DNA of 63,891 nucleotides, counting the filler, from Theionarchaea archaeon (GTDB taxonomy: Archaea > Methanobacteriota_B > Thermococci > Methanofastidiosales > SZ-28-30), in assembly GCA_018992565.1 (NCBI GenBank). It is 7 parts of 7 records of this genome, joined end to end, with 100 filler letters (N's around TTAATTAATTAA, not from the genome) between each part and the next. Parts side by side here need not be neighbours in the genome. Positions count along the whole stretch, not along the records: positions 37,006 to 53,318 come from JACVGW010000063.1; 6 more parts are not named here. One strand, written 5' to 3'. Below, piece after piece: positions 12,298-52,344 of this stretch. Position 1 is the stretch's first letter; every line of letters begins with the position of its first letter. A program made the translations under genes and the position numbers. The notes below the pieces were generated by a model. The model had not been told where the DNA came from. It was given only the letters and a program-made list of their open reading frames with translations, and did not search any database.

Positions 12298-12320
12298 GCA
12301 GTTGAGAAAAAGAGAGTCTA

Positions 12321-13097
12321 ATGACTACTGTAATACACACTGTCAACTTGTCAAAACACTACAGCAAAGGAGAGATCAAAGCGGTGGACGATCTGAATCT
12401 TGATGTCCGGGAAGGGGAGACTTTTGGGCTGCTTGGTCCCAATGGTGCGGGGAAAACCACGACTGTCAACCTCCTGAACTGCATTGTCAAGCCTACCAGC
12501 GGTACTGCCTCCGTCATGGGATATGACATCATCAAGGAGAGCATGGAAGTCAAGCGGGTGACAGGACTGCTGGCAGAGTCACCAGGGCTGTTCGAGAAAC
12601 TGAGCGCATATGAGTTCCTGGAGTTCATGGGTGCTTTGTATGATGTTGATCAGAGTATTCTTCCAGATCGAATTGATGAATTGCTCAATTTATTCGAACT
12701 CTATGAAAGAAGGAACCAGCTCCTTGAGGGATACAGCAGAGGCATGAAACAGAAGATCCTCATTGCAGCAGCAGTAATCCATGACCCCCCTCTATTGTTT
12801 CTGGATGAGCCCACCTCCACGCTGGATCCACGGGCTGCCTTGATGGTTAAGGATTTGATAAAGGGATTGGCAGAAAAGGCAGGGAGGACTGTTTTCATCT
12901 GCAGTCACATTCTCCCAATCGTGGAAGAGCTCTGTGATAGGATTGGGATTATCAGCCGGGGATCTATGATTGCTCAGGGAGCAGTCGAGGACATCATTTC
13001 CGGGACTGAAACAACAACCCTGGAAGAGGCATTCATGGCCCTCACGGGTGGTGTAGAAGAGAAGGAACTCCTGGCCTGGAGGGAAGCACAGAGATGA
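12321..13097 (+). CDS. ABC-2 type transporter ATP-binding protein
   Basis: GPNGAGKTT, YSRGM signature, LDEPT, SH switch. Confidence 0.95.
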   Translation: MTTVIHTVNLSKHYSKGEIKAVDDLNLDVREGETFGLLGPNGAGKTTTVNLLNCIVKPTSGTASVMGYDIIKESMEVKRVTGLLAESPGLFEKLSAYEFLEFMGALYDVDQSILPDRIDELLNLFELYERRNQLLEGYSRGMKQKILIAAAVIHDPPLLFLDEPTSTLDPRAALMVKDLIKGLAEKAGRTVFICSHILPIVEELCDRIGIISRGSMIAQGAVEDIISGTETTTLEEAFMALTGGVEEKELLAWREAQR

Positions 13098-14695: not shown

Positions 14696-14773
14696 AAAGT
14701 ACTATGGAAATAGAACTGAAGGAGTGCCAGAAACATTGTATGGTGAAATTGAAAAAATGAAGAAAAGAAAGAA

Positions 14774-37176: not shown

Positions 37177-38454
37177 TCACCGCCCAATTCTTTCCCTGAT
37201 CTCATCAATATACAACTGCAACTTTCTGTACTGGAGTGGCTCCAAGGGTTTCGGGTGGGCCAGATCATTTCTTATCTCATTCATTTCTATGAGTCGTCCC
37301 TTAATCCATCCAATGCTGATAAAATAAGGCTCAAACAAATCCCAATTATTAACCCTCTCAGTCCTATACAAAATTATGGACAAATAATTAGGAAAATCAG
37401 TATAATGTAGCAACGAATAAACTGTCTTCTTCCTGATTCTGGCATCATGTTGACGCACTTTCAACCTTTCCAGCGTGTCAGAAGGTATGCGCTCTTCCCA
37501 CCTCTCAGATCCTTTCTGCAGTACCTGTTCCAGAAACCCCCTGAATCCCTCTTCAAACTCAGACAGAACTGCGTAGGCCTGGGGGTTGCTGCGAATACTC
37601 TGCTGCACCTTCTCAGAAAACTCCTCCAGAGCAGGGGGCAGGACATATTCCCGCAAGAATCGCTTGTACGCCTTCTTATCCTCTATAACAAATCGAAGTG
37701 GATCCTTATAATACCTGATAGTACCCTTTTCCTTCATCTCTTCCAAAATTCCTTCTATGTCCTCCAAAGAAATCGAATACTCTTTCAGCTTTCGAAAAAA
37801 GATCTTTTCTGCTTTGGGTTCATATACATACAAGACCCGGAACACATTCAGTACCCTGGAGATATCCTTCAGAGCATCTTCCAGAGACAGAATCCTCTCC
37901 TCATTCACATAGTACTCCTCAAAGTACCTGTACAAGTCGGGAGGAGTGACCACAACTCCATGCCCATTCACAGGTCCCAAAGCCGTATATTGGTGAGCCT
38001 TACGGGCAACCCCGGCTTCCAACAGCAAAGACTTTATCATCACAACAAGATCCTGAATCACAGGAAGTGATGCTGCCAGTCTGAACTCCGGATGAAGAGA
38101 GGGAGCATGTTTTCCCTGCGACAGCAGGTGGCCCAAATACCTCAGGACAACATATGATCCTTCCAGGTTGAGCTTCTTACATTGCTCAAAAACCTCCTGG
38201 CTCTTCTCATGCAGGAGATCACCTGCAATCTGTTCTCCCTTCCCCGTACATCTCAGTAGCTGCACCTTCCCCCACATGCCCTTCTCCAGCAGGTCATAGC
38301 CATGCAGTATGCCTGTTGGCCCTGAAACATCTGCAGCAAGGACACCTTTCTCAGATACATTTTGCTTAACAAATACATCCAGCAGGCAGTCAAGTGCCTT
38401 ATCAGTATCGAATCCATACCTATCGAGAGTCTTCCGCAATGTCCTGATGTTCAC
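37177..38454 (-). CDS. Hypothetical protein with C-terminal Swt1-like HEPN domain
   Basis: YTDF..Y..II...NWDLF..YF and the Rx4H motif RNDLAH. Confidence 0.7.
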   Translation of the reverse strand: MNIRTLRKTLDRYGFDTDKALDCLLDVFVKQNVSEKGVLAADVSGPTGILHGYDLLEKGMWGKVQLLRCTGKGEQIAGDLLHEKSQEVFEQCKKLNLEGSYVVLRYLGHLLSQGKHAPSLHPEFRLAASLPVIQDLVVMIKSLLLEAGVARKAHQYTALGPVNGHGVVVTPPDLYRYFEEYYVNEERILSLEDALKDISRVLNVFRVLYVYEPKAEKIFFRKLKEYSISLEDIEGILEEMKEKGTIRYYKDPLRFVIEDKKAYKRFLREYVLPPALEEFSEKVQQSIRSNPQAYAVLSEFEEGFRGFLEQVLQKGSERWEERIPSDTLERLKVRQHDARIRKKTVYSLLHYTDFPNYLSIILYRTERVNNWDLFEPYFISIGWIKGRLIEMNEIRNDLAHPKPLEPLQYRKLQLYIDEIRERIGR

Positions 38455-38620: not shown

Positions 38621-39126
38621 ATGGAAGATAAAGAGGAAATTATGCTGAACTCCCTGAACCATAAGGTAAGAAGGGATATACTCCGCCTCATCAAAACCAA
38701 AGGCAGCGTCACCTACACTCAGATCCTCGACAGGGTGGAATCACCTACTGGAAAGCTCAACTATCACCTGAAGCAACTGACAGGACTCATTGAAAAAACA
38801 GCATCAGACGAATATGAGCTCACACCATTGGGGGAGAAAGCAGTAGAAATTCTGGACGCCATCCAATCGAATGGACTGGATGAGTATTTCAATAAAGTCA
38901 ATGAAGCGCAGACACAGAGTATTTCTCCTCTCATGAGGGGGTTCTTCAAAGGAGGCATTGCAGTCGCTGTTTTCCTGCTGGGATTCTGGACCTTCATGGG
39001 CTACCTCATGTATACCACAGGAGCACCTCTGGCAGTATGGGTCATCCTGGCTATTCTGTATGCTATGGGAGTGGCACTGCTGATGTTCTTGATTACCGTG
39101 TACAGGACTGCTCCCCAGTATATTGA
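38621..39126 (+). CDS. ArsR-like winged-HTH regulator with C-terminal TM helices (3-prime end in gap)
   Basis: L.H.VRRDIL, GKLNYHLK.L, YELTPLG; two TM helices. Confidence 0.8.
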
Positions 39127-39308
39127 NNNNNNNNNNNNNNNNNNNNNNNNNNNNNNNNNNNNNNNNNNNNNNNNNNNNNNNNNNNNNNNNNNNNNNNNNN
39201 NNNNNNNNNNNNNNNNNNNNNNNNNNGAGATGATGACTCACTTCTGGTGGTTGTTTATTCTGGGAGTACCTGTTCTTGTCATCACGGTTGTTGTCTTGTG
39301 GCTGCGTG

Positions 39309-40976
39309 TCAGGACACAGGATGTGTGATTCTGAGGTGTTCATGAACCTTTTGAGCCATTTTCTTATTCTTTAGAACAGATTCCAGCTCCTCCACTGTGC
39401 ACGTCCTCATGTTCTCAACAGAACCAAAGTGGTTCATCAGCATTTTCTTTCTCTTTTCCCCAATTCCCTTGATATCATCAAGAACAGATTTCTTCAGCTT
39501 CTTTCGTCGTAATGTCTTATGATATGCAATGGCAAATCGATGCGCCTCATCTCTCACCTTTATCAACAATGTCTTGGACAACTGGGACACCTCCCCTTTC
39601 CCCTGAGGCGTGAACACTTCCTCTTCCCTTTTGGCCAGAGCCACCACGGGGATGTCTATCCCCAGCTCCTGGAGGGTCCTCAGCGCTACATTCAGATGTC
39701 CTTTCCCTCCATCTATCAACAGCAAGTCAGGCATGACCTCTGTATGCATAAACCGTCTGTGCAGTACTTCTTCAATCATGGCATAATCATCAATACCCTC
39801 AACCTGTATTTTGTAGTGTCGATAATCCTTCTTGGATGGGTTCCCATTCAGAAAACACACCTGAGATGCTGTGGCCTGTTGTCCCATGATATTGGAAACA
39901 TCATAGCCCTCAATCCGTTCAGGTACCTTTTTCAATCCCAGTTCATCCCGCAGTAGTTCCAGCTCACCATATACGTACTTCAAATGAATTTCAGCATCCT
40001 TTTCCACCATTCTCAACAACTTCTTCCGTTTTCCCCTCTTGGGCACGGAAACCTTTACTTTCTTACCCTTTTTCCTTTCCAGAAATTCAATGAACGCTGG
40101 GTCTAATTCTTCTTGCAGCACAATCTCATCAGGAATCAGCCTCTCGGCGTAAAACTCACTCAAGAACTCCTCATCATCTGATTCCAGAACATACTGGTGC
40201 TTGCCAATGATTCTCCCTCCTCTCATGACCATGACGGTAAAACACTTGGTCTTCTCCCCTTTGATTGCTATCACATCAATATCCCCAAGGGAGGGATGGT
40301 TAATGTACTGGGTCAGGCGGGACTTCTCTAAAGCTGAAATTCTGTCCCTGATCAGGGCAGCCTTCTCGAAATCCAATTCTCCGGAGGCATGCTGCATTTC
40401 CTTATCTAGTTCGTCTATTAAATCGTCAATTTTTCCTTCCAGAAACATGATCAGTCTCTTGACATTCCGGTTATACTCCTCTCTGGTAATTCTACCTGTG
40501 CAGGGTGCAGGACACAACCCAATATGGTATTCGAGGCACTCTTTCTTCTTGAGGGTTTTACACGTTCGTAATGGAAACAATTTCCGCATGAATTTCATAG
40601 TCTTTCGCAGGGCCTTGGCACTCTGAAAGGGCCCAAATACCTTTCCATCAGTGATGTCCCTGGTCACCATGATGCGGGGAAATCCCTCATGAGTGACCTT
40701 CAAATAGGGATACATGGTGTCATCTTTCAGTCTGATGTTGAACCGAGGTTTGTACTCTTTGATGAGGTTGGCTTCTAGAAGTAAGGCATCCACCTCACTT
40801 TCACAGACAGTAAACTCAATATTCGTAGTGTGCGCTACAATATCTTCTGTTCTGGTGTCCAGACTTTTGTTGGAGTACGATGAGAGCCTGTTCTTTAATG
40901 ATTTAGCCTTGCCAACGTAGATGACGGTGTCTTTGTCTTTCATGAGGTAAACGCCCGGTTTGTCTGGATAGTCCAT
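39309..40976 (-). CDS. uvrC: Excinuclease ABC subunit C
   Basis: GIY-YIG (PGVYLM..IYVGKA), UVR domain, IDGGKG, RDEAHRFA, HhH. Confidence 0.95.
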   Translation of the reverse strand: MDYPDKPGVYLMKDKDTVIYVGKAKSLKNRLSSYSNKSLDTRTEDIVAHTTNIEFTVCESEVDALLLEANLIKEYKPRFNIRLKDDTMYPYLKVTHEGFPRIMVTRDITDGKVFGPFQSAKALRKTMKFMRKLFPLRTCKTLKKKECLEYHIGLCPAPCTGRITREEYNRNVKRLIMFLEGKIDDLIDELDKEMQHASGELDFEKAALIRDRISALEKSRLTQYINHPSLGDIDVIAIKGEKTKCFTVMVMRGGRIIGKHQYVLESDDEEFLSEFYAERLIPDEIVLQEELDPAFIEFLERKKGKKVKVSVPKRGKRKKLLRMVEKDAEIHLKYVYGELELLRDELGLKKVPERIEGYDVSNIMGQQATASQVCFLNGNPSKKDYRHYKIQVEGIDDYAMIEEVLHRRFMHTEVMPDLLLIDGGKGHLNVALRTLQELGIDIPVVALAKREEEVFTPQGKGEVSQLSKTLLIKVRDEAHRFAIAYHKTLRRKKLKKSVLDDIKGIGEKRKKMLMNHFGSVENMRTCTVEELESVLKNKKMAQKVHEHLRITHPVS

Positions 40977-41035: not shown

Positions 41036-41860
41036 CTAATGGTCATCCTGGCATTTCTTGTCCTGCTGGCAGCATTCCACAATATCCTCGGCCAAGATCA
41101 TCGGGTTGTCTGCTTTCAGTTCTGAAGAAAAAAATGGAAATAGAAAATGCATATATTCATCCATCTCTATGAATTGCTCCTGATCAGACGTCTCCTGAGT
41201 TAGGTGAGGTCTCTGGAACTCTTTCTCAAGGGCCAGAGCACCTATCCAGGAGGCTGCAGTATAGATGAATGCATGCTGCATGAGAAACCTGCTCTGGGTA
41301 GGAATTCTCTTTATGGTGAATACCATACGTAGATACCGCCATATGGATTGAGGATGGTCACTTTCTGTGGTGCGGTGCAGGACTTCGTGGATCAGGAGCT
41401 CAAGTGTTTTCTGATCGTGCTGGTCCAGTATGGGCATACTGAGAGGAGTACTCCGGGGCCATGAGCGAAAGAAGGGCATGACGGGGAATACTTCTAAAGA
41501 CCCTTCATGGAACAGCCATAATTCTTTCATCATGGAAAGAATTCTCTGCTGGTTTGATTTCCACAAGGATTCGAGATTCTCCTTGAACCGAAACAGCTCT
41601 AGCCTGAAAACAGGCCAATCTGCTTCAAATGATCTCTTGAAGGGGCCCACTTCTTCTCCAATAGGGACAGGAATGCGCGTCAGCACAGTATCCAGAGGTT
41701 CATCCAAGGCAAAGAGGCTTTCTACTTCTCTCGACCACAGATAGGACTTCTCTGGAGAGAGACGGCTTCTTGCATATCCCAGGAAGTTCAGTGGCTGTGA
41801 TATCTCGAAGATCAGTCTTGCAGTCATGCTATCATCATGGGAAGGAGTATGAACATTCAT
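41036..41860 (-). CDS. HExxH-motif hypothetical protein in RiPP operon
   Basis: LLIHEVLH motif; 12 nt after the methyltransferase. Confidence 0.6.
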   Translation of the reverse strand: MNVHTPSHDDSMTARLIFEISQPLNFLGYARSRLSPEKSYLWSREVESLFALDEPLDTVLTRIPVPIGEEVGPFKRSFEADWPVFRLELFRFKENLESLWKSNQQRILSMMKELWLFHEGSLEVFPVMPFFRSWPRSTPLSMPILDQHDQKTLELLIHEVLHRTTESDHPQSIWRYLRMVFTIKRIPTQSRFLMQHAFIYTAASWIGALALEKEFQRPHLTQETSDQEQFIEMDEYMHFLFPFFSSELKADNPMILAEDIVECCQQDKKCQDDH

Positions 41861-41872
41861 TCTTCAAAATGA

Positions 41873-42682
41873 CTATCGTTTCTGGGCAATGGCCTGTAAA
41901 TGGTTCCCTACAGGGCCGAACCCTTCTTCGTTTAAAGCGATCTCGTATGTCAGAATCTTTTTCCTGAATTCTGCATCTGTTTCAAGTCTTTCTCCCAAAT
42001 CCTCAAGATAGGCCGATCCGAAGGTTATGAATACTGGCTTTCCAACTACCTTCACAAGATCAGCCCCTGCCTCATCAAATTCCTCTTTAAAGACACGGGG
42101 TGTAAACGTAAAGGTGCGCGTACCTCTCTTGTCCACTGCAATTCCCTTTTCCAGGATACTCTCTCCTTCAGTAAACCCATGTAGGACAGATTGCCTCATA
42201 AAAAACATGTACCTACTGTCCACGCCAATTTCAATGTAGGACTTCGGTTTGGCAACCCTCACCAATTCTTTTATGGCCTGGAAATGATTCTCTGCACAGT
42301 AAGAGACTGGATCGCCCTCTGATAGCACAAAGTCGAAGTAATCTGAGGAGAAGTCCAGAGCTGTTATATCCCCTTCCTGGACGAAGATTCTGTCTTTTAG
42401 CCCTTCTCCCTCTATTTTTTCAGAAGCTTCTGCCAGCATTTCAGGAGAGACATCCACGAGGTGAACAGTATACCCCCGTCTTGCCAGCTGCATGCTCCAT
42501 TTGCCTGTGCCTCCTCCTGCATCCAAGATAACACCCTCCCCGGGGAGATAATCCTCAATGTACTTCCAGGTAAGCGCGTCATACACTGCCCACATTCCTC
42601 CTGAAAACATCGCATCATAGGACTCCGCCAGTCGACTGTACGTATCTCTTGCATCCTCTCCTTTCATTCCATCACTCCACAA
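41873..42682 (-). CDS. Class I SAM-dependent methyltransferase
   Basis: ILDAGGGTG, VDVS..ML, GD...FDFV, RVAKP. Confidence 0.9.
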   Translation of the reverse strand: MWSDGMKGEDARDTYSRLAESYDAMFSGGMWAVYDALTWKYIEDYLPGEGVILDAGGGTGKWSMQLARRGYTVHLVDVSPEMLAEASEKIEGEGLKDRIFVQEGDITALDFSSDYFDFVLSEGDPVSYCAENHFQAIKELVRVAKPKSYIEIGVDSRYMFFMRQSVLHGFTEGESILEKGIAVDKRGTRTFTFTPRVFKEEFDEAGADLVKVVGKPVFITFGSAYLEDLGERLETDAEFRKKILTYEIALNEEGFGPVGNHLQAIAQKR

Positions 42683-42926
42683 GCTCCAATTCTCTAAATC
42701 TGGACAGCGTTTTCATAACATCCTCCTCCACGGTACCACGATCACTTTCCTGATCCATCAACAAATCCAGAAGCTCTTCCTCTCCCATCCCCTGCTGACA
42801 GGCTTCCATGATGGTGAGAGCTGTCTCATTAAACCGGTATATTTTACCCGTTCCCATGTGAATAACATAGGTTTCTTCAGGTTCTTGTCTAACCAATACC
42901 TGCGGATTAACCCTGGGCAGGCTCAT
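42672..42926 (-). CDS. PqqD-family RiPP recognition element (stand-alone)
   Basis: Three-strand/three-helix RRE pattern: IY.FNETA..I......DV..TL..F...ELVE. Confidence 0.85.
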   Translation of the reverse strand: MSLPRVNPQVLVRQEPEETYVIHMGTGKIYRFNETALTIMEACQQGMGEEELLDLLMDQESDRGTVEEDVMKTLSRFRELELVE

Positions 42927-44217
42927 GGGCATTCCTCCTTTCATGCATATATTCCAAGTAAGGGGCCACAATTTGCTTTACATCAAAGCAGGCGGGGGTG
43001 TAAAGATCCTTATTGACCAGTAGTGACTGATATCCACAGCCTCCCCCACACAACAATGCCATGTCGCATTCCCTGCACATATCTAAAGCAAAGATGGTCC
43101 GATTCCTCCATTTCTCAACTGCTTCCTCAAAAGATAGTTCAGGTATATACACCCCAATACGATGTTCTTTCCAGCCCAGCATGGCCCGACATGGGTACAC
43201 CTCTCCAAAGGGATCGAAGACGTATCGGTTGACCACGGCGGCACAATTCCAGAATGAGGGCCAGAATCGAGGGTGCTCCGTATATAGAGAACCCAGCTTT
43301 GCATATGGTGAAGCCTCGAAGAAGCGGAAATCTTCATGAGCTGCCAGATCCAGAACCTGCCTGTACACTGCAAGGAGCCTCTCATAATCCTCAAGGTTCA
43401 TGATCTGACCACATACGTGGATCATGGCAAAATGGATATGGGGATCATCAACCCATCCCCTCTCTCTGTAAAAGTGGGCGAGCTCTCCAATCCGTGAGAG
43501 AACATCTGGGTCGGAATTTGTCCGAATAAGCAGGGTGAGCCCTATTTCCCGTGCTTTCTCTATATTTCTGACAATGGCATTGAAGGTCCCCTTCCCACTC
43601 CTCGATATTCGTCTCTGATCATGAATGGGTTGGGGGCCATCCAGAGTAATCTGCACAAATTCAGTATTCACAGATGAGATTTCAGAAAGAAAAGAATGCA
43701 GCTCCACACCATTGGTGAAAAGCGTGAATTTATATCCCAGATCATCACCTTTCCTCAAAATATACTGCACAATATCGGCATTCTTCCTCATGAGAGGTTC
43801 CCCCCCTGTTAGAGTCACAAGTTTTTCTCCTGGGCACTGCGCATTGAGCTCTTCCATGGCAGCATATGCTTTATCCACCTTGTATTCATCCATCACCATA
43901 TTCATCATCTGGGGGTTCTTTACCCATATTTCATAGCAGTAAGGGCATCTCAAGTTACAGTCATATGTCACGGCAATAGTACTGTCTGCACACTGTGAGG
44001 CTTTCTTCCTCAGAAAAGCGCAGAAGGCCTGAGCTTTCTCAGCCTCTTCTTCAGGACTCAAATGGGTGAAAAAAGGGTTCAGCTCCTCAGAACCCTCGCC
44101 TTCAAGAAATTTCTCCCCTGTCTGCTTATCTACAAGAGAAACTGCACCTGATAATCCATTAAGTAATAGGTACTTGTCTTTCACTGCAAATACCATGGTA
44201 TACTGGCTCTTTCTGAT
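42907..44217 (-). CDS. Radical SAM/SPASM peptide maturase 1
   Basis: CNLRCPYC, GGEP, ITLDG...HD..R, SPASM C..GEVYPC..CxxC..CGGGC..C; start is either ATC at 44217 or ATG at 44196. Confidence 0.92.
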   Translation of the reverse strand: MRKSQYTMVFAVKDKYLLLNGLSGAVSLVDKQTGEKFLEGEGSEELNPFFTHLSPEEEAEKAQAFCAFLRKKASQCADSTIAVTYDCNLRCPYCYEIWVKNPQMMNMVMDEYKVDKAYAAMEELNAQCPGEKLVTLTGGEPLMRKNADIVQYILRKGDDLGYKFTLFTNGVELHSFLSEISSVNTEFVQITLDGPQPIHDQRRISRSGKGTFNAIVRNIEKAREIGLTLLIRTNSDPDVLSRIGELAHFYRERGWVDDPHIHFAMIHVCGQIMNLEDYERLLAVYRQVLDLAAHEDFRFFEASPYAKLGSLYTEHPRFWPSFWNCAAVVNRYVFDPFGEVYPCRAMLGWKEHRIGVYIPELSFEEAVEKWRNRTIFALDMCRECDMALLCGGGCGYQSLLVNKDLYTPACFDVKQIVAPYLEYMHERRNAHEPAQG

Positions 44218-44394
44218 GGACCCACCTCCTTTCTGTTCTGGTAATCCGGCTTATAAAGGTTTTCTTGCCCTTACCCTCTCTCTGATCATCCTTGGTTTCT
44301 GTGGATATATCTCCATTGTTCACTAGTGAAAATTTAACGGCATCCCCAAGAAAAATAAAAAAATAGAAAAGTTGTTGCATTATTGTTCCAATGC

Positions 44395-44472
44395 TTAGTC
44401 TACAATGACTGCGCAGCACATGCACTGGTCAATCTCCATAGAAATCTCTTCAATTTCAGATCGTATATACAT
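44395..44472 (-). CDS. RiPP precursor peptide A1: MYIRSEIEEISMEIDQCMCCAVIVD
   Basis: Manually translated; own BRE-TATA, AGGTGAT SD, T-rich terminator; paralog of A2. Confidence 0.85.
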   Translation of the reverse strand: MYIRSEIEEISMEIDQCMCCAVIVD

Positions 44473-44768
44473 GGATATCACCTGGTCTTCTTTACACCTT
44501 CTCTCTTATAAATCTTTCGGAAAAGCATAATTGATTCAACACAAATAAAAAATACTGCTAATGTAATAAAGGCAGATCCGCTCAAAACTAAAGCCAGGAA
44601 GACGGCACGATACCTGCGGCTTTTAATGCACGATCTTGTCTTGTCGAAATGCCTTGCGCTCAGTCTTCAACCATTCAGTTGCCTGCAGTTCTCCATATGA
44701 TTCAAAAAATGATGAGAAGAATAAGAAAAAGAAGGAAAAAAAGAGGACTTCCAAAGTAAGAGAATTGC

Positions 44769-44867
44769 TTATGCAACAACTCCAATGTTGTCTATGGGAG
44801 CTGCAGCACAGCACATGCACTGGTCAATCTCCATAGAAATCTCTTCAATTTCGGATTTTATGTACAT
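44769..44867 (-). CDS. RiPP precursor peptide A2: MYIKSEIEEISMEIDQCMCCAAAPIDNIGVVA
   Basis: Manually translated; same promoter and SD as A1; synonymous differences from A1 (TAT/TAC, TCT/TCC, TGC/TGT). Confidence 0.85.
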   Translation of the reverse strand: MYIKSEIEEISMEIDQCMCCAAAPIDNIGVVA

Positions 44868-45071
44868 GGATATCACCTGGTCTTCTTTATCGTAGGGACT
44901 TATAAATCTTTCGTTCAGGTTTAATAGAATCTAAGAACTCAGTAATAAATGGTAATACAACACATAATTTATCACTTGAGATTATATGATGTTGAGGAGT
45001 AAACACAATCTCCATTTCAAACGCATCTGATCTTCTTGTAGGATGAAAACTTCTGAAAGAGCTGTCGAAAA

Positions 45072-46313
45072 TCACTCCCCAATCTTCTTGCCTTCTGCTA
45101 TCAGGAGCAATGCCGGAAGCATGGCTGCAAGAAGACACACAGATGTGATTTGGAATGTCATCCTGATACTGAACAGCTCTGCAACGTAGCCATACATCAA
45201 GGGGGCAACAATGCTGGCCACGCCTCTCACTGACCCCAGTGTCCCGAAGTACGTACCTCGAAGGTCTGCAGGAACGATATCCACAATTAATGCGCTCATG
45301 ACCGGGCGAAACATCCCATCACCAACCCCAATCAATGCCCACAAAACTACCATCCAGGCCAGGTTGGGAGAATATGCCATGCCGGTATTGAAGACGATAA
45401 TGAGCGTCAATCCAAGACCAATGAACGCTTTCCTCTTTCCCAGTCTATCAGAAATCCATCCTCCAAAGGGCTGGACCACGGCAAACGTGATCCATGAAAC
45501 TGCAACAATGGGTCCCAGGAGTTCATCGCCTGCTCCAAATACCTTCGCTGCAAATAAGGGAACATAAACGGGGTATACTCTCAGCGCAAACGTGAAGAAA
45601 AACGAATAGATCATCAGTCCGAGAGTACTTCTCTGCACTGCCATGGCACGGACGCCCTTTGTGAACCGTTCAAGTCTGCCTTCAGGGGGACCACGTGAAG
45701 GAGTCTCCTCTTTTCGTTCAACAGTTTCCTTGAGAAAGACTGCAAGTACCAGAGAAGAACCAAAGAAGCATGCAGAAGTGATATAGAATAGTTCTCTAAA
45801 CCCGAATCCCCAGGCTAAGATTGCTCCACCTGCAAAGAGAGCCGCAGAATATACAATGCTCTCCACCGAAGAATAAAAGCCGAATAGAGTTGCTCGTCCC
45901 TTTTCAGGAGCGACATCTCCCACCATAGCGCTGAGAACCGGTTGGGAGCTTTCAGAAACGACGGTACGCGCAGAATGGATAACTGCCAGTCCCAAGGCAC
46001 TACGGATGACAAGATAAAAGGGGGTCAAGAGACTCACGAGGAACGAGAGACTCACAATGAGCTTTTTTCTTCCGTATTGATCTGATACATTCCCTATGAG
46101 AGGCCGCATCACCAGCGAACCCAAGCTTGCCATTGAAAAAATAATCCCTAAATTCTTGAAACTGATTCCCTGTTCTACAAAATAAACTGCAAATATGGGA
46201 TTCAAGAATCCTGCACCCACCATTGAAACTCCACTTGCCAGAAGAAGTGCTGGGATATTCGTTGATTGTGAAAGTAATTTCCAGACTTTCTTGATTTCTT
46301 GGAATGCTGACAT
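45072..46313 (-). CDS. MFS transporter (candidate exporter)
   Basis: GNVSDQYGRK and GWISDRLGKRK motifs; about 12 TM. Confidence 0.9.
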   Translation of the reverse strand: MSAFQEIKKVWKLLSQSTNIPALLLASGVSMVGAGFLNPIFAVYFVEQGISFKNLGIIFSMASLGSLVMRPLIGNVSDQYGRKKLIVSLSFLVSLLTPFYLVIRSALGLAVIHSARTVVSESSQPVLSAMVGDVAPEKGRATLFGFYSSVESIVYSAALFAGGAILAWGFGFRELFYITSACFFGSSLVLAVFLKETVERKEETPSRGPPEGRLERFTKGVRAMAVQRSTLGLMIYSFFFTFALRVYPVYVPLFAAKVFGAGDELLGPIVAVSWITFAVVQPFGGWISDRLGKRKAFIGLGLTLIIVFNTGMAYSPNLAWMVVLWALIGVGDGMFRPVMSALIVDIVPADLRGTYFGTLGSVRGVASIVAPLMYGYVAELFSIRMTFQITSVCLLAAMLPALLLIAEGKKIGE

Positions 46314-46591
46314 ATCAGTTCCTCCTTCGATGTCCCTTCTTTGCGTAGAACCCTTTATAAGGTTTATCTTTCCCTTTCATTTACTCAATCATCTTCTCAA
46401 GTTAACTCGATTATTGATGTTTTCCTTGATTGATGTGGAAACCTTCTTCGATCTTGTTCCGCGTGTGGGGGGAAATTTCTTGAGGTATGTGGGCTGCCTG
46501 AAGCCGGTCACGAATACTCCCGAGTGGCAACTCGATGAGAGGACAGAAAATGAGAGAACTGTACTGGAAAGTAAGTGAAATGTGACGTGGA

Positions 46592-47623
46592 TCAGCATAA
46601 CGTTGAAAGAGGATCTGGATCGCTGATCCCGCCCGATGCTGCATATGCATCTGCCCTGCACCCCCCTGTACATAAGGAAAGGTACTCACAGTCGAGACAT
46701 TTTTGAGGGACGTGGGAAAATGTCCTGCACTTCCAGATGAATTCCGATCTACTCCAAATAGATCTCAATGATTCTTCTTTCAGATCTCCTTCTTCACTTC
46801 CCATGGCCCCGCATGTGCGCACTAGTCCTTCTGGGGAGACTGCACACCAGGTTATCCCTCCCTGGCAACCCACCACATCAAATTTCTGGTAGATTTCAAG
46901 CATAGAAGGAATACCCTCCTCTCCGAGGCAGCACACAGGGAAAGGAGACTGAATGGATGCACCTTTCACGTCACAGTGAAGCAAGAACCGCATCAACTCG
47001 GATATGGTCCTGCTGGTAAACTGCAAGGCTTTACGAGCATGTTTTCCCGTGAGCACCAGGCGGGTCATGCTGAGATTGGCTCCCAATGACTTGGCAACGT
47101 CTTCAACGTGGGGCAGCTCTCTAAAATTAAGGCGGGTTAGAGCCAGGTTAATATTAGTGGGAACTCTATGGTCTGCCAGGTGATTGAGTCCGCATGCAGC
47201 TTTCTGGTAGGCTCCCTGGACGCCCACAAGAGAATCATGTGTTTTCTCAGTCCCATGGAGCGAAACCTGCACTGATGTGTGCAAATTCTTTAACATCTGT
47301 GCCTTCTCTTCTGTTAGCAGGGTCCCATTGGTAACCACGCATGTTTTCATGCTGTGATTTCTTGCATGTTCTATGAGTTCGAAAATATCTCTTCGCATGA
47401 GGGGCTCCCCCCCGGTGAAAAAAAGCATTTTGACGTCAGCCTCCTGGAGTTGATCCAGAATTGCGGTCATGTTGGTGTGGCTATGCCCTTTTTCCCACAC
47501 GTTGTAGCAGAACTGGCACATATTGTTGCATCGGGAAGTCACTTCCAGTTCTACTGTTATGGGGGAGGAAAGTGCCCTTCCCAGCTGCTGTGATCCCTTT
47601 CTGAATTCTTCAGGGGACTTCAT
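46592..47623 (-). CDS. Radical SAM/SPASM protein 2 (PqqE-like)
   Basis: CNNMCQFC, TGGEP, HD.L.G..GA, SPASM C..C..CxxC..CTGGC. Confidence 0.92.
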   Translation of the reverse strand: MKSPEEFRKGSQQLGRALSSPITVELEVTSRCNNMCQFCYNVWEKGHSHTNMTAILDQLQEADVKMLFFTGGEPLMRRDIFELIEHARNHSMKTCVVTNGTLLTEEKAQMLKNLHTSVQVSLHGTEKTHDSLVGVQGAYQKAACGLNHLADHRVPTNINLALTRLNFRELPHVEDVAKSLGANLSMTRLVLTGKHARKALQFTSRTISELMRFLLHCDVKGASIQSPFPVCCLGEEGIPSMLEIYQKFDVVGCQGGITWCAVSPEGLVRTCGAMGSEEGDLKEESLRSIWSRSEFIWKCRTFSHVPQKCLDCEYLSLCTGGCRADAYAASGGISDPDPLSTLC

Positions 47624-48452
47624 GCATGACCTCCTGGTAGTGAAGTGCGTCAGCACGTGCTCTGTTCACATCTGTATATCGATGCTTGAGCAGTACACGA
47701 TTATCCCGAATAAGGTATAGAGACAAGTACCCGGCGAGAGGGTTCTCCATAATAAAAGGTGTAGAGCCAACCTGGGAAATGTCTATGGAGGGTTTTCGGG
47801 ATTTTGAGCTGGCATCAGCAGGCACGAGCACAAATGCATCACCTGCACCAGGAAGATAATCAAGAATCTGACGTAAATCAGGCTGTGCCTGCGCCTGAAT
47901 GAGGTTCTGAATCTCTAAACTGCATTTCTGATACGTGTAAGGGAGTGCAATCTCTAGAGCAGAAAACATGCTCCTGATGTGACGCAGGTGAACTGCTTCA
48001 CTCTTATAGGTATCAAGGCTGAAAGGAATGAGAAAGACAGGAGCCTGAACAACCCCATGAGAAAAACCTTCCAGAGCATCAATCTTGGCCTGTACAGCTT
48101 CAGGCTTTCCGTGGGAAATCCACCCATCTGGAGAAAACATGCACCCCGTTGAGAAGAAGTTCTTGGGGAGTTGTTCCCCCGTTGCTGCGCTGGTTAAAAG
48201 CAAGAATAGGGGCACAGAGGTACTCCATCCATCTACAGCCCAACTGTCCACTGAAACGAGAAAATCATGGTTTTGGTATTGGAGAATCTTTTCCATGAAT
48301 TGAGTGATAGTGCGCAGTTGGAACTGCCATTCTGGATAGTAAACTGTGGACGAATCCAGAAATATCTTCCCATTACCTTTCTTTTTCTGCACACTGAGTG
48401 TTCGGGCGACTGCTCCCCCATGAGATAAAACAAGAATAGCTGTGGAGATCAT
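47610..48452 (-). CDS. Stand-alone Lon-type (S16) protease domain protein
   Basis: DGWS aligns with Lon DGPS; TG at Lon spacing; downstream Lys in AKIDA; no AAA domain. Confidence 0.6.
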   Translation of the reverse strand: MISTAILVLSHGGAVARTLSVQKKKGNGKIFLDSSTVYYPEWQFQLRTITQFMEKILQYQNHDFLVSVDSWAVDGWSTSVPLFLLLTSAATGEQLPKNFFSTGCMFSPDGWISHGKPEAVQAKIDALEGFSHGVVQAPVFLIPFSLDTYKSEAVHLRHIRSMFSALEIALPYTYQKCSLEIQNLIQAQAQPDLRQILDYLPGAGDAFVLVPADASSKSRKPSIDISQVGSTPFIMENPLAGYLSLYLIRDNRVLLKHRYTDVNRARADALHYQEVMHEVP

Positions 48453-49516
48453 CTTGAGTCCTCCGGGTTGTACCAGCATTGAGGATCAGGAGTATTGTAA
48501 TCATTGGAAAACGCATAGGCGATACAGGCTGCGCCCCCATTGCACAACCCGTTATACTGCAGATACTTGCAGGACTGACATTTTCCCTTTAAGAGAGGTT
48601 GACGTCTTCTGAAATCCCACAAGACATCATTCTTGAACCAAATGTCCAGAAAGGACTGCTCAAGAAGAGAACCGAGTGGGATGGGCAACCTCCTGCAGGG
48701 GACAGCAGTGCCATCTGCCAGAACGGTAAAGGTGGATGAAGCTACAGCACATGCATTCCCCAGCCGCTCTTCTCTGTTCTTATATCGTCTCACAGCTTCT
48801 TCTGGATCAGTTAAATGAAAGAGACACCTATTTTCCACGATGTGAGGGGTTCCTATCCTGGATAATTCTTGATTCCTCTGGTGCAGATAGGCAAGAACCT
48901 CTCCAGTCTCTTCAGGAGTCAAGACAGCGTCCATGGCTTTTCCTTTTCCTATAGGGACCAATCGGGTTAGATATAATGTATCCACGCCCAGTTTCTCTCC
49001 CAGAGCGATGATGGAAGGAATATCACTCTTATTCTGAGCATGAAAGGTATAACTTATGGTGGTCTTGAGAGGTGTACCGGCTATGACGGAAATCAGTCCT
49101 GATACTGCCTTTTCAAATGCTCCTTCTCCTCGTATGGGGTCATTAACTGAAGGTATACTCCCATCAAGACTCACCTGTATGGTGGTTATGGGTGGGGTAA
49201 ATTCATTAAGCCTTTCGATTACGTGTGGGGTGATGAGCGTTCCATTGGTCTCCAGGAGAACCTGGGTAACGCCTTTTGAGTGTAAGTAGTGGACAAGATC
49301 AAAGAGATCTTGGCGAAGAAATGGTTCTCCCCCACTTAAAGCAAAACATGGTGTTACCTTAAGAACGGTTAATCCTTCCATCAGAGTATCTGCAATCCTT
49401 ATGAGCTGTTCAAAGGGAAGATCCTGCATCTTTTCATCCCTGTAACAGTGAGTGCAGTGCAGGTTGCAGCGATCAGTGATGTGCCACTGCAGAGTAAATC
49501 CTCGGGTCGGCTGCAT
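48449..49516 (-). CDS. Radical SAM/SPASM protein 3
   Basis: LQWHITDRCNLHCTHCY, SGGEP, QVSLDG, SPASM C..PC..CxxC..CNGG..C..DPQC. Confidence 0.92.
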   Translation of the reverse strand: MQPTRGFTLQWHITDRCNLHCTHCYRDEKMQDLPFEQLIRIADTLMEGLTVLKVTPCFALSGGEPFLRQDLFDLVHYLHSKGVTQVLLETNGTLITPHVIERLNEFTPPITTIQVSLDGSIPSVNDPIRGEGAFEKAVSGLISVIAGTPLKTTISYTFHAQNKSDIPSIIALGEKLGVDTLYLTRLVPIGKGKAMDAVLTPEETGEVLAYLHQRNQELSRIGTPHIVENRCLFHLTDPEEAVRRYKNREERLGNACAVASSTFTVLADGTAVPCRRLPIPLGSLLEQSFLDIWFKNDVLWDFRRRQPLLKGKCQSCKYLQYNGLCNGGAACIAYAFSNDYNTPDPQCWYNPEDSR

Positions 49517-49691: not shown

Positions 49692-50027
49692 TTAATGGAC
49701 GAAGGCTTTCTTTCCAGTTGCTCCAATGAGTGCTCCCAGCAATGACAGAATCCCTCCCACTATCAGGGTCAAAGGAAGTGCAGGAAGCCCTGCCACGGCA
49801 TTGACAAAGGACAAAACAGCTCCAAAATGACCAGAACCTGCAAATCGGAGAACTAAGAGCAGCCAGGCCAGGACTCCTCCCACAAACCCAAGAAGAGCTG
49901 ACTTCTTGTAATCCTCAATGAGATATCCACCCAGAATGCCAGCTATCACCACGAGAACCCAGTGGGCCACAGTGAGAGCAGCTCCCAGGACAACTATCAC
50001 TGCACATCCCAGAATATCTTTTTTCAT
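49692..50027 (-). CDS. Gly-rich small membrane protein
   Basis: Four hydrophobic GxxxG-rich helices; coupled to the acylase gene. Confidence 0.7.
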   Translation of the reverse strand: MKKDILGCAVIVVLGAALTVAHWVLVVIAGILGGYLIEDYKKSALLGFVGGVLAWLLLVLRFAGSGHFGAVLSFVNAVAGLPALPLTLIVGGILSLLGALIGATGKKAFVH

Positions 50028-50028
50028 G

Positions 50029-52344
50029 TTATCCCCTCCGCAAAATGAGTACTGATTCCGTGGTATACCCTTCCAGTTCCCAGGGAAGATACTGGCTCTC
50101 CTTCCATAATTCCACAAAGTCCGTATAGTGTCTGGAGAAGGGGTTACCGCTCTGCCCCCCAGGGTACATACACAGATCATGGTCGAAGTCTATGATCTCT
50201 CTCCAGGAGGGACCACCTTTCGAGGTCCAGCCCCAGGCAACATCTACTGTATTGCTGGAGCCATCATAAGGAAACTGAGGATAGTTCAAGGCAGTGACTA
50301 CAGAGCCTATTAGATGCTCCAGAGAGAATATATGTTTCTGACCGTAGGACCAGGTAGTGACGTCTTCTGTGAATTGGTCTACTAATTGCTCTATGGTTTC
50401 CTGAAAGCTCTTCTGGATGATGTCTTGTGCTGTTTCCACTTCTGACGTGGAGACATCATCAAAGAAGTTGGTCCTTCCACATGCTTTCAACATGTTCTCC
50501 AGCGTTTCTGTGGTGGGATACGGTGCATCAGGAATTCCTGCTTCCTCGTATTCATCGTGGAAGATATTCTCCATGAAATTGTCCAAAAAGGTGTGGTAGA
50601 TTAAAGGTGCTACTTGGGTACGTTCATCGTTGTAGTCCCAGGTTTTTAAGTAGTGTAAAGCTTCTTCTTCCGCATCATTCTGGGGAGTGATAACCTCTAC
50701 TATCATGGGTGTTATGATGGAGGCGGGGATATCATAGATGTCAGACTGGATTCTAATCATATCCTCCATGGTTAAGAGTTCTTTCTCCCGCAGCAGTGTG
50801 TTAATTCGTTCTGCTCTATACCGATCGGCCCAGATGAACCCCAGGTAGTACGGGTAGCCAAGAGAAACAGGAATTTGGTTTGCAGACGCAAGATATCCCT
50901 GGTCAGGATTGAATGCGTGGGGCAATTCTTCAAAGGGGATATACCCTGTCCAGTCATAGTCTCCAGAAGCCCCGTCCACAGGGGCTCTCCCTGTGCCCTT
51001 TTTTCTGATAGGTATTCTACCTGTGGATCTGATGGCAATGTTCCCATAGATATCTGCATATACAAAGTTCTGGGCAGCTACAGAGAATAATGTAAGGCCT
51101 TCTTCGTATTGTTGGTAATTGGAAGCTTTGTTAATGAGGAGGAGAGCCTCAAATTCGAAGGTGGGCTGGAGGCCTGTCCAACAGACGGCAAATTGCTTTC
51201 CATCTCGTTCCAGGATAGGACCATGGCCTGTGACGCTGACAGTGAGGGTTCTGGGGCTACTCCCTTTGATGTTGATTACTTCCTGTACCTGGGTTACATC
51301 ATGCCAGGTGCCCTGGTGGAAGTACGTGGTTCCGTCCTCTGATAGGGTTTCTACATAGAAGTCAATAACATCTGCTCCTGTATTGGTGAGACCCCAGGCG
51401 ATGCGTTGGTTTCTCCCAATGAGAACACAGGGAGTTCCTGGAAGGGTTACGCCTGCCACATTATAGCTGGGTGAGACCATGTGGACCTGGTACCACAAGG
51501 AAGGCAGAGTGGTAGACAGGTGGGGATCATTGCACAGCATTGGTCTGCCTGACTGGGACTTCTGTGGAGAGACAGCCCAGTTGTTGCTGCCGACTTCCAG
51601 GGGGATTCTGATGGCCTGATTACTCCAGAGCAAAATCTGCTTGCATGCTTCTGATAATCCGGGTATTATTGGCATGTTGACAGGTCGTTGTGAGGGGAAT
51701 AATTCCTGTACAATTTCTGCTCCTAAAGCTTCTTCCATTTTCTGCACTTCTAAATCGTAAAAGGAACCTGATAGCTCCCATCCCATCATTTTTCCAAATG
51801 TTATAGCGTCTATGGGAGTATATTCTTCCGGGTTACATTGCAGCAGAGTATATTCTATGGGATAGGGGTTAGCATTCGTGATGTACTGGTTGACTCCTGC
51901 GCAGTAAGCATCTGCAATGTCTCTTGACCATTGACTCATCTGGGAGTAGGTTTCTTCAGCAGCTCTGTGCATACCAAGAGTGCGGTAGAACGTATCTGAT
52001 TCGTAGGCATCCTCTCCCACGATCTCTGAGAGGCGGCCTGAAGGGAGTCGTCTCTGAAGATCTATCTGGAAGAGCCTGTCCTGAGCATGAACATACCCTA
52101 ATGCGAAGAAGAGGTCGAGGTCATTCTTGGCGTAGATGTGAGGAACACCGTTGGTATCTCGTTCAATGCGCACGTCGTCATTGAGGTTCAGTCCTGTGAT
52201 CTCTTTTGTTGCTGGATGTTCAACAGATTGGCTGTATTTCCACAAGCCTGAAGAGGGATTAAGATATGGCATGAAGGGTGAAACTGCATATGAGAGAACA
52301 AGTGTCAAAGCTATAAGCGCTCCTAGATACAATTTGTGTTTCAT
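50029..52344 (-). CDS. Penicillin acylase family protein (Ntn hydrolase, S45)
   Basis: GVPHIYA, GYVHAQDRLFQ, catalytic GSNNWAV, NDPHL, PGGQSG. Confidence 0.93.
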   Translation of the reverse strand: MKHKLYLGALIALTLVLSYAVSPFMPYLNPSSGLWKYSQSVEHPATKEITGLNLNDDVRIERDTNGVPHIYAKNDLDLFFALGYVHAQDRLFQIDLQRRLPSGRLSEIVGEDAYESDTFYRTLGMHRAAEETYSQMSQWSRDIADAYCAGVNQYITNANPYPIEYTLLQCNPEEYTPIDAITFGKMMGWELSGSFYDLEVQKMEEALGAEIVQELFPSQRPVNMPIIPGLSEACKQILLWSNQAIRIPLEVGSNNWAVSPQKSQSGRPMLCNDPHLSTTLPSLWYQVHMVSPSYNVAGVTLPGTPCVLIGRNQRIAWGLTNTGADVIDFYVETLSEDGTTYFHQGTWHDVTQVQEVINIKGSSPRTLTVSVTGHGPILERDGKQFAVCWTGLQPTFEFEALLLINKASNYQQYEEGLTLFSVAAQNFVYADIYGNIAIRSTGRIPIRKKGTGRAPVDGASGDYDWTGYIPFEELPHAFNPDQGYLASANQIPVSLGYPYYLGFIWADRYRAERINTLLREKELLTMEDMIRIQSDIYDIPASIITPMIVEVITPQNDAEEEALHYLKTWDYNDERTQVAPLIYHTFLDNFMENIFHDEYEEAGIPDAPYPTTETLENMLKACGRTNFFDDVSTSEVETAQDIIQKSFQETIEQLVDQFTEDVTTWSYGQKHIFSLEHLIGSVVTALNYPQFPYDGSSNTVDVAWGWTSKGGPSWREIIDFDHDLCMYPGGQSGNPFSRHYTDFVELWKESQYLPWELEGYTTESVLILRRG

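Follow-up and report, generated by a model that had tools for sequence, protein, structure and literature searches.

Among the peptide systems served by SPASM-type radical S-adenosylmethionine (rSAM) maturases, the SCIFF peptides of clostridia are about 45 residues long, carry six cysteines and occur as one conserved copy, and in the PapB and CteB systems the donor cysteine precedes its acceptor. The nearest studied archaeal relative is CrpC of Methanococcus voltae (TIGR04463), which, according to the study describing it, binds three [4Fe-4S] clusters and installs ranthionine links; its residues 1–92 were assigned as a recognition element (RRE) of the kind found with peptides that are made on the ribosome and modified after translation (RiPPs), the donor cysteine in its substrate CrpA again precedes the acceptor, and that substrate is a large protein, not a peptide (PMC13692751). 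Functional characterisation of predicted archaeal RiPP clusters is described as still limited in a survey of archaeal RiPPs (PMC12144867). Here we describe a set of minus-strand genes at positions 41036–49516 in a 63,891-nucleotide (nt) stretch of DNA from Theionarchaea archaeon GCA_018992565.1, the whole of which we call the window. We consider it fairly probable that these genes form a RiPP cluster of an uncultured Theionarchaea-type archaeon from sediment, composed of two modules, in which short precursors with a CMCC motif would be matured by one rSAM enzyme, rSAM1, together with accessory proteins. Cysteine peptides modified by radical SAM/SPASM enzymes are a known kind of system; what is new here is the family, its motif and the set of accessory proteins.

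Central to the locus are two mini-genes, A1 and A2, which encode MYIRSEIEEISMEIDQCMCCAVIVD and MYIKSEIEEISMEIDQCMCCAAAPIDNIGVVA, with three cysteines per peptide. A1 reads MYIRSEIEEISMEIDQ-CMCC-AVIVD and A2 reads MYIKSEIEEISMEIDQ-CMCC-AAAPIDNIGVVA, and the two genes sit in an 84-nt direct repeat whose copies are 94% identical and lie 395 nt apart. The first-pass annotation had called them twin Cys-rich precursors, a call borne out by the repeat, by the three cysteines in each and by their conservation beside a SPASM-type rSAM gene. The mini-genes and the enzyme genes that follow them are listed below; domain calls throughout were made with Pfam and NCBIfam hidden Markov models (HMMs) and scored against curated cut-offs.

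44899–44913, minus strand: B recognition element (BRE)/TATA-like promoter element of A2, an exact 15-mer in common with A1
44769–44867, minus strand: precursor A2, 32 residues, with a GGTGAT ribosome site at 44872–44877
44704–44744, minus strand: T-rich, terminator-like tract after A2, read off the sequence
44505–44519, minus strand: BRE/TATA-like promoter element of A1, an exact 15-mer in common with A2
44395–44472, minus strand: precursor A1, 25 residues, with a GGTGAT ribosome site at 44477–44482
44348–44370, minus strand: T-rich, terminator-like tract after A1, read off the sequence
42907–44196, minus strand: rSAM1, a radical SAM enzyme in which an N-terminal domain of 72 residues accompanies a SPASM domain with seven cysteines
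42672–42944, minus strand: discrete PqqD-family (RRE-type) protein, 90 residues, called by Pfam
41873–42682, likely start 42667, minus strand: class I SAM-dependent methyltransferase, called by Pfam

Related copies were sought by tblastn and profile searches in several loci. L001 is the homologous locus at 298649–319935 on a contig of the closest relative, and G001 (about 3.0 Mb) is the whole genome containing it; G002 (about 2.5 Mb) is an uncultured Thermococci-class metagenome-assembled genome (MAG) that contributes L002, L011 (contig C8), L017 (contig C13) and L018 (contig C68); L003, L006, L007 and L008 are further loci carrying an rSAM1 orthologue. We found 12 complete CMCC copies, two in the window and the others in six of these loci (two in L001, three in L007, two in L017 and one each in L002, L006 and L008), and a 13th copy, in L017, is truncated by the contig end. 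All 12 start with MY and have CMCC at residues 17–20 (pattern MY..E..E......CMCC); behind the motif follows a hydrophobic tail of 4–15 residues that varies freely, so precursor length ranges from about 24 to 35 residues. The leader is acidic and conserved (MY.K.EI.EIS.EIDQ). Across 10 aligned copies M1, Y2, E9, C17, M18, C19 and C20 are invariant, E6, I7, S11 and Q16 are near-invariant, and every copy has an acidic residue at both positions 13 and 15. Codons change synonymously at Y2, E9, C19 and C20 despite the conservation of these residues, and in the same copies variable sites number 9, 5 and 16 at codon positions 1, 2 and 3, a pattern that marks selection on the protein. The L001 copy of A2 is 91% identical to that of the window.

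The signals around the mini-genes are conserved as well. In all 12 copies the ATG is preceded at about 35 nt by a BRE/TATA-like element (CGAAA.N.TTTA[TA]A) and at 5–6 nt by a GGTGAT or GGTGAA ribosome site, and a T-tract lies 3' of the stop codon. T-tracts serve as archaeal terminators, and each precursor, having its own promoter element, ribosome site and T-tract, would therefore be a small transcription unit of its own. Within the window, the promoter-like 15-mer CGAAAGATTTATAAG has two occurrences and no more, one ahead of each peptide gene, against an expected count of 0.05, and none of 100 shuffles contained two. Judged from these sequence features, the mini-genes are genuine, conserved precursor-like genes. 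They are essentially uncalled in public gene sets; a protein-database search with the 41-residue in-frame read of L002 retrieved only itself, a 35-residue entry.

Two of the loci hold arrays of such genes. In L017 (G002:C13), positions 1–900 on the minus strand carry at least three CMCC genes in tandem, each with a promoter-like element, and run into the contig end; the array would probably continue into L003 if the two contigs join. In L007, three CMCC genes lie downstream of rSAM1 at 12116–15067, with a DDE transposase gene (13369–14844) between the second and the third and a BREX-type BrxL/PglX pair upstream.

The CMCC peptide and rSAM1 make up the conserved core of the system. A CMCC gene lies within 4 kb of rSAM1 at all six loci with flanks (window, L001, L002, L006, L007 and L008), and the earlier concern that homologous loci might lack the peptides thus found no support. 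At a seventh rSAM1 locus, L003, the contig begins inside rSAM1 (residue 158 of a second rSAM1 paralogue); there the rSAM1 paralogue is followed by a pyridoxal phosphate (PLP)-dependent (PALP) enzyme. rSAM1 matches Pfam Radical_SAM with 65.4 bits. Its radical SAM motif, C80-x3-C84-x2-C87, is invariant in 25 sequences, and so are the seven SPASM cysteines C318, C336, C374, C377, C383, C387 and C403 in 25 orthologues, arranged as Cx12Gx4C ... Cx2Cx5Cx3C ... C, a region to which the Pfam SPASM model gives no match. rSAM1 orthologues form 30 clusters at 53–89% identity, below which identity falls to 38% or less, and the named ones all come from Theionarchaea or Candidatus Methanofastidiosia (NCBI names). 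The taxonomic range is narrow, and the names of the close homologues agree with the earlier designation of an archaeal RiPP-type cluster. Two Fibrobacter loci, L004 and L005, with 32-residue matches at E 9e-4, were rejected as chance matches.

Beyond this core, the cluster is composite and not one indivisible 8.5-kb unit, as its two modules are separate in a relative. Module A consists of rSAM3, the Lon-fold protein, rSAM2, the major facilitator superfamily (MFS) transporter and the HExxH protein; module B consists of the precursors, rSAM1, PqqD and the methyltransferase. Besides the genes listed above, the locus has the following features.

48449–49516, minus strand: rSAM3, a radical SAM/SPASM enzyme of 355 residues
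47610–48479 as called, family start 48452 (280 residues), minus strand: Lon-like protein, recognised by fold search, no Pfam match
46592–47656, minus strand: rSAM2, a radical SAM/SPASM enzyme of 354 residues
45072–46313, minus strand: MFS transporter called by Pfam, 413 residues, candidate exporter
41036–41860 as called, family start 41827 (263 residues), minus strand: HExxH protein, no Pfam match

Transcription runs from rSAM3 through the Lon-like protein, rSAM2, MFS, A2, A1, rSAM1, PqqD and the methyltransferase to HExxH. The gene content, order and strand given in the first-pass annotation stand, but its description of the set as gap-free does not: the rSAM2–MFS, MFS–A2, A2–A1 and A1–rSAM1 pairs are separated by spacers of 278, 204, 296 and 198 nt, and the promoters and terminator-like signals are located within these spacers of roughly 200–300 nt. 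Elsewhere the genes are packed. The family start of the Lon-like protein at 48452 gives an ATGA overlap with the rSAM3 stop, the Lon-like and rSAM2 genes overlap by 47 nt, and the rSAM1, PqqD, methyltransferase and HExxH genes overlap or abut.

In the window and in L001, the MFS and HExxH genes enclose module B, and the orthologous proteins are 63–87% identical. In G002, module A is contiguous on contig C8 (L011), in the order rSAM3, Lon-like protein (51% identity), rSAM2 (68%), MFS (63%) and HExxH (51%). There MFS and HExxH share 23 nt of overlap, and the module is free of peptide genes. Synteny in relatives, which had been proposed as a check, supports the nested arrangement in L001 but not a single unit.

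Within module B, the PqqD protein belongs to its family (PF05402, 36.7 bits against a Pfam cut-off of 23.4), and its orthologues are 63–80% identical. The methyltransferase matches Methyltransf_25 with 72.5 bits and Methyltransf_11 with 62.3 bits, and no NCBIfam model scored over its cut-off. The MFS transporter matches MFS_1 with 160.6 bits and is conserved beside rSAM2 in L001 and L011. These scores uphold the identities first proposed for all three proteins. An exporter adjoins the peptide gene in the window, in L001 and in L008, where it is a divergent MatE exporter near rSAM1; in L006, an S8 subtilase lies 1.8 kb downstream of rSAM1.

Both further rSAM enzymes start directly at the radical SAM motif, without a peptide-binding domain; in rSAM3, which has no such N-terminal domain, the CxxxCxxC motif begins near residue 17. 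The Pfam scores are 64.6 bits for Radical_SAM and 39.7 bits for SPASM in rSAM3, and 76.3 and 21.4 bits in rSAM2, the last just below the 21.5 cut-off. Of the three rSAM/SPASM enzymes first reported, all have Radical_SAM, but Pfam calls SPASM in rSAM3 only, with rSAM2 just under and rSAM1 recognised by its 7-Cys pattern. The rSAM3 orthologues are 85% (G001) and 70–72% (G002) identical, those of rSAM2 81% and 68%. The best NCBIfam match of both enzymes is the AhbD model (159 bits for rSAM2 and 160 for rSAM3, cut-off 500), and NirJ-type models give 113–155 bits, where the AhbD and NirJ cut-offs span 500–650; MftC gives 134 and 122 bits (cut-off 265) and PqqE 110 and 84 bits (cut-off 381). Membership in an Ahb- or NirJ-type family had been named as a possible refutation, and these scores place both enzymes outside. 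With the AhbD model, G001 has 43 matches and G002 has 62, all below the cut-off and often in tandem (for example G001:C3:57541–61344 and G002:C10:4413–8371), and first-look candidate counts were 45–55 in these two genomes versus 2–13 in the 20 other phylum genomes listed. By such model matches, G001 and G002 show an extreme expansion of SPASM-type radical SAM genes. The scores reach about a third of the cut-offs, the expansion is very large and the AhbD resemblance is generic; on sequence comparison rSAM2 and rSAM3 are not heme-pathway enzymes.

The Lon-like protein has no Pfam or NCBIfam match. Its family (27 members) gave no Lon_C match at E ≤ 10 against Pfam, only chance matches, and the family profile found nothing relevant among PDB sequences. 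A model built with AlphaFold2 (AF2) from the 27-member alignment (pLDDT 88.2) returned, in a Foldseek search, the E. coli Lon proteolytic domain as its top match (3wu6, E 6e-10, prob 1.0, TMt 0.72), followed by LonB, LonA, LonC and the BrxL C-terminal domain. The Lon fold spans roughly residues 1–190, about 80 further residues form an additional C-terminal domain, and S77 and K123 are invariant in the 27 sequences. Aligned with the LonB of G002 by hhalign (pairwise E 0.0056, with a low hhalign probability), the invariant DGWSTS falls on EGDSAS and QAKI on NAKI, which places them on the Ser and Lys of the LonB catalytic dyad. The protein has no AAA+ ATPase domain and, at 280 residues, is too short for one. 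As modelled, it is a divergent protein of the S16 fold that stands alone, keeps a conserved Ser/Lys pair and has gained a domain at its C terminus, and the original label Lon-like is well founded in both the fold and the motif alignment. The family comprises 28 clusters in 5.8 billion proteins; every source-named member comes from a Theionarchaea or Methanofastidiosia MAG, and the protein was present in two of 60 relatives.

The HExxH protein likewise has no Pfam or NCBIfam match, and only five relatives were found in 1.84 billion representatives. HE[VIL]LH is kept in all four full-length homologues. Foldseek returned nothing for its model at E ≤ 0.001. VIA-align gave ERAP1 (Z 5.6 over 124 residues), APN (5.3), PSA (4.6) and F3 (4.6), all on M1 aminopeptidase catalytic domains and all within the tool's stated noise range, and Atlas structure leads, which are leads only, point to Peptidase_M1 and Peptidase_MA_2 (TM 0.43–0.55). 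We tentatively regard it as a zinc metallopeptidase (clan MA-like). As to its earlier listing as a protease candidate, the conserved motif holds and the peptidase identity is tentative.

The modules also share a distribution. The precursor, Lon-fold and HExxH profiles, as well as rSAM2 and rSAM3 (counted at E ≤ 1e-50), each match the same two of the 132 genomes in our phylum comparison set, G001 and G002, which are the only species genomes with rSAM1 orthologues confirmed in the contig scan, and the Lon-like clusters (28) are about as many as those of rSAM1 (30). Several observations nevertheless weigh against a single pathway. The co-occurrence may merely reflect that G001 and G002 are the only close relatives in the set. 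In G002 module B (peptide, rSAM1, PqqD and methyltransferase) lies on another contig, L002. Module A is absent beside rSAM1 in L003 (on a 6.1-kb contig), L006, L007 and L008; PqqD and the methyltransferase are not beside rSAM1 in these four loci either, and the succession rSAM1, PqqD, methyltransferase is found only in the window, L001 and L002. Because four rSAM1 loci have neither module A nor PqqD and methyltransferase nearby, the extra enzymes would be dispensable for some CMCC peptides or act in trans. It had also been suggested that three cysteines and three rSAMs might belong together, which at this locus is unsupported, as L006, L007 and L008 keep CMCC with rSAM1 alone and L003 is likewise without the other two. 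Furthermore, a second HExxH paralogue, 44% identical to that of the window, occurs in L018 (G002:C68, 1016–3657), where it overlaps the start of a 634-residue PQQ-like beta-propeller gene among ribosomal, RNase P and exosome (housekeeping) genes, so that this orphan family also occurs outside the peptide cluster.

One explanation for these observations would be that two systems with no relation to each other have become neighbours: module B would be a self-sufficient RiPP cassette inserted between the MFS and HExxH genes, and module A a separate operon with another substrate, whether a peptide, a protein, a small molecule or a cofactor. The contiguous, peptide-free module A of G002, with module B on a different contig, and the four rSAM1 loci without module A nearby are what such an arrangement predicts; the best HMM matches of rSAM2 and rSAM3 are the cofactor enzymes AhbD, NirJ, MftC and PqqE, and with 43 and 62 often tandem AhbD-model matches per genome a chance rSAM adjacency becomes less unlikely. 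However, module A would then be left without a substrate gene of its own, and its two peptidase-like proteins and its exporter suit a peptide. The nesting has been kept in two genomes with orthologous proteins 63–87% identical, the RRE needed by RRE-less SPASM enzymes is found only in module B, where the sole discrete RRE-type protein lies, all parts occur in the same two of 132 genomes, and the AhbD and NirJ scores stay near a third of the cut-offs, with no G001 or G002 gene passing that of AhbD. For these reasons (nesting in two genomes, no substrate gene in A, an RRE only in B, identical phyletic patterns, and two peptidase-like proteins plus an exporter in A) we hold a functional link between the modules to be probable, and two unrelated neighbours to be unlikely.

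Independent metagenomes offer a further view of the locus. Near-identical DNA (84–99% of sampled words) is present in contigs of 19 metagenome runs from seven studies, covering marine sediment, mangrove, soil and others, several of which may be the source sample. Independent metagenome contigs end at the duplicated precursor genes (44411–44461 and 44779–44870); with assembly breaking at these duplicates, MAGs would frequently contain the locus in pieces, with the possible loss of precursors or their neighbours. One metatranscriptome yielded a single 186-nt contig within rSAM1 (43034–43219), possibly carried-over DNA and too little to support a claim of expression, which is a further point against the two-module pathway; the rest of the cluster was uncovered in that one run, which does not imply silence.

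As to chemistry, no cluster protein scored over the cut-off of any curated NCBIfam model, in line with the initial impression of an unrecognised family. The top five NCBIfam matches of rSAM1 are all maturases of Cys-rich peptides, and the alignments extend over the full length, the N-terminal domain of 72 residues included. rSAM1 scored 141 bits against CefB (NF038107, cut-off 600), 117 bits against the CrpC family TIGR04463 (cut-off 525), 111 bits against the geopeptide maturase TIGR04280 (cut-off 400), 107.3 bits against PapB (NF047865, cut-off 340), 104 bits against the Clo7bot maturase (cut-off 600) and 89.6 bits against the SCIFF maturase TIGR03974 (cut-off 425). It is thus not a member of the CefB, CrpC, PapB or SCIFF families, and its substrate carries CMCC, not the Cys-every-fifth pattern that goes with CefB. 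Its best solved relative is CteB (5wgg, E 3e-17, residues 73–400), and its N-terminal domain aligns with the N-terminal region of TIGR04463. By these comparisons rSAM1 resembles a thioether-forming peptide maturase outside all curated families, and it probably cross-links the CMCC peptides. The orthologous L001 region appears as a 'ranthipeptide' region (298410–325314) in the antiSMASH listing of a supplementary table (PMC12144867), the tool that the first-pass annotation had proposed to consult. The product is most likely a ranthipeptide-like thioether peptide that would be methylated, trimmed and exported.

A plausible sequence of events would begin with the leader bound by the N-terminal domain of rSAM1, by PqqD or by both. 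rSAM1, with its radical SAM cluster and two SPASM clusters, would join at least one CMCC cysteine to carbons of neighbouring residues, giving thioethers of the ranthionine or sactionine type. We place the acceptors in the tail because the donor cysteine precedes the acceptor in studied relatives; alternatively, the conserved acidic residues 13 and 15 could accept. Module A would most likely act on the same CMCC peptides: where present, the RRE-less rSAM2 and rSAM3 may add further modifications, probably by way of the discrete PqqD. The methyltransferase would add a methyl group, possible targets being a thiol, a carboxylate or a terminus, and Asp is often the last residue of short tails. Leader removal could then fall to the Lon-fold and HExxH proteins, and export of the small, hydrophobic, cross-linked product to the MFS pump.

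This scheme has its difficulties. Tails of four to five residues (MYIP, AVIVD) leave little room for three Cys-to-downstream rings. An RRE nature of the rSAM1 N-terminal domain is proposed because of its homology to the N-terminal region of TIGR04463 only, and hhalign found no profile similarity between the rSAM1 family and the PqqD of the cluster. A structure prediction of the rSAM1–precursor complex gave 'no answer' (score 0.02, mark 0.32), which is evidence neither way. Finally, rSAM1 lies far under every curated thioether-maturase cut-off, and its chemistry could differ. It might instead catalyse a non-thioether reaction (epimerisation, a C–C or C–O cross-link, or Cys oxidation), with the cysteines serving otherwise, for example in auxiliary-cluster binding. 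SPASM enzymes at similar sequence distance catalyse many reactions, and an anaerobic sulfatase maturase is among the PDB and NCBIfam matches of rSAM1. Yet the top five NCBIfam matches and the best solved relative act on Cys-rich peptides, in the substrate it is the cysteines that are invariant, and antiSMASH assigns the orthologous region to the ranthipeptides, so that we find a non-thioether reaction rather improbable.

The invariant motif and variable tail could also point, in place of an exported natural product, to an intracellular cofactor precursor or a metal or redox peptide, akin to mycofactocin, PQQ or SCIFF, whose tail would be discarded and whose Cys/Met cluster would act as a soft-metal or Fe–S ligand; C-x-C-C with Met does resemble thiolate metal-binding motifs, and rSAM2 and rSAM3 are about as similar to MftC and PqqE as to anything else. 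A metal-related role is suspected for CrpC/CrpA, the closest archaeal relative studied (PMC13692751). This reading nonetheless seems very unlikely to us, given diverged copies with hypervariable tails (two in the window, two in G001, at least four in G002) of a kind typical of secreted RiPPs and not of one single cofactor, MFS or MATE (multidrug and toxic compound extrusion) exporters that adjoin the peptide genes in three loci, and a range much narrower than that of a core cofactor.

The two-module RiPP cluster that we favour can be extended further. The CMCC peptides might constitute a new archaeal RiPP class, defined by a very short precursor, up to three SPASM enzymes, leader removal by a Lon-fold protein and a polycyclic, methylated, exported product. 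In such a class every member would need rSAM1, a shared discrete PqqD would bring in rSAM2 and rSAM3, and the leader would be cut by an ATPase-less Lon-fold Ser/Lys peptidase, a type of protease that is not known to take part in RiPP maturation, to leave a product of 8–16 residues. The lineage concerned, the Theionarchaea, has dozens of SPASM genes in each genome. As a whole, we regard this extended proposal as doubtful.

The gene set is flanked by UvrC downstream and by a membrane ORF and a penicillin amidase upstream. The latter two were not counted as parts of the cluster: they are syntenic in L001 only, with no match in the G002 loci L002, L011, L017 and L018. The membrane ORF (49692–50180, minus strand), which belongs to no family, lies between the amidase and rSAM3 and is 78% identical in L001; it is listed at 162 residues but is probably shorter, since it runs into the final part of the penicillin amidase gene. 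Two genes downstream of the cluster, a 425-residue protein (37177–38454, minus strand) has a weak Swt1-like HEPN match (20.2 bits, cut-off 27.5). A run of about 111 N bases (39123–39233), either an assembly gap or a masked stretch, falls inside an ArsR-like or membrane ORF (38621–39328) past UvrC. Lastly, three orphan proteins of about 830 residues near rSAM1 loci showed no homology to one another.

The locus had been flagged automatically before, without analysis in the material available from that source. The supplementary table that lists the ranthipeptide region gives the lineage Methanobacteriota_B; Thermococci; Methanofastidiosales; SZ-28-30, and the main-text passages available from the same source mention neither the precursors nor the two-module structure nor the Lon-fold protein (PMC12144867). 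The supplement text of the CrpC study has no Theionarchaea, Methanofastidios or CMCC entry (PMC13692751). Our literature search found no paper on this peptide family, the CMCC precursor or Theionarchaeal radical SAM peptides, and none on a Lon-fold leader peptidase in a RiPP pathway; its 'CMCC' matches were a culture-collection acronym and were discarded. The system offers a compact, testable case, with substrates of 25–32 residues that can be synthesized, one paired core enzyme and defined add-on enzymes. If our model is true, the CMCC motif would mark a new precursor family, the stand-alone Lon fold possibly a new leader peptidase class, and the cluster would show how RiPP pathways are put together from modules in nature. 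With 43–62 SPASM-like matches in genomes of 2.5–3 Mb, Theionarchaea would be a rich, unexplored source of radical SAM peptide chemistry.

Several known systems bear comparison with the cluster. In PqqE/PqqD and MftC/MftB, as here, short SPASM enzymes without an N-terminal domain (rSAM2 and rSAM3 in our case) go together with a discrete PqqD protein; the CMCC precursor differs in having no C-terminal Gly-Val-Tyr or Glu/Tyr motif, and there are two such enzymes here, with a Lon-fold gene between them. The Lon S16 proteins (E. coli Lon, archaeal LonB and the BrxL C-terminal domain) share the fold and the Ser/Lys placement with the Lon-like protein, which in contrast has no AAA+ domain or Lon_C match and carries an extra C-terminal domain. 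The CefB, PapB and geopeptide maturases all act on Cys-containing peptides, but rSAM1 falls three- to four-fold under their cut-offs, and the CMCC substrate has neither the Cys-every-fifth pattern nor repeated C-x3-D motifs. CteB (PDB 5WGG/5WHY) is likewise a SPASM thioether-forming peptide maturase and the closest solved enzyme to rSAM1; unlike SCIFF peptides, the CMCC peptides are shorter, have three cysteines, occur in multiple copies and have variable tails. CrpA differs in being a protein of 28.8 kDa, with ten repeats of 17 residues each and with C-x-x-Q/D motifs, in contrast to the peptides of 25–35 residues with a single CMCC found here, and the Crp system has no second rSAM pair, Lon-fold protein, PqqD or methyltransferase (PMC13692751). 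The two systems also have features in common: CrpC is archaeal, and to its radical SAM domain it joins a SPASM domain with seven cysteines and, at the N terminus, a domain that was assigned as an RRE; the SPASM cysteine spacing of rSAM1 equals the cluster-ligand spacing of CrpC; CrpA, too, is a Cys-rich substrate with a conserved N-terminal recognition part (PMC13692751); and rSAM1 aligns to positions 7–401 of the 438 in the TIGR04463 model.

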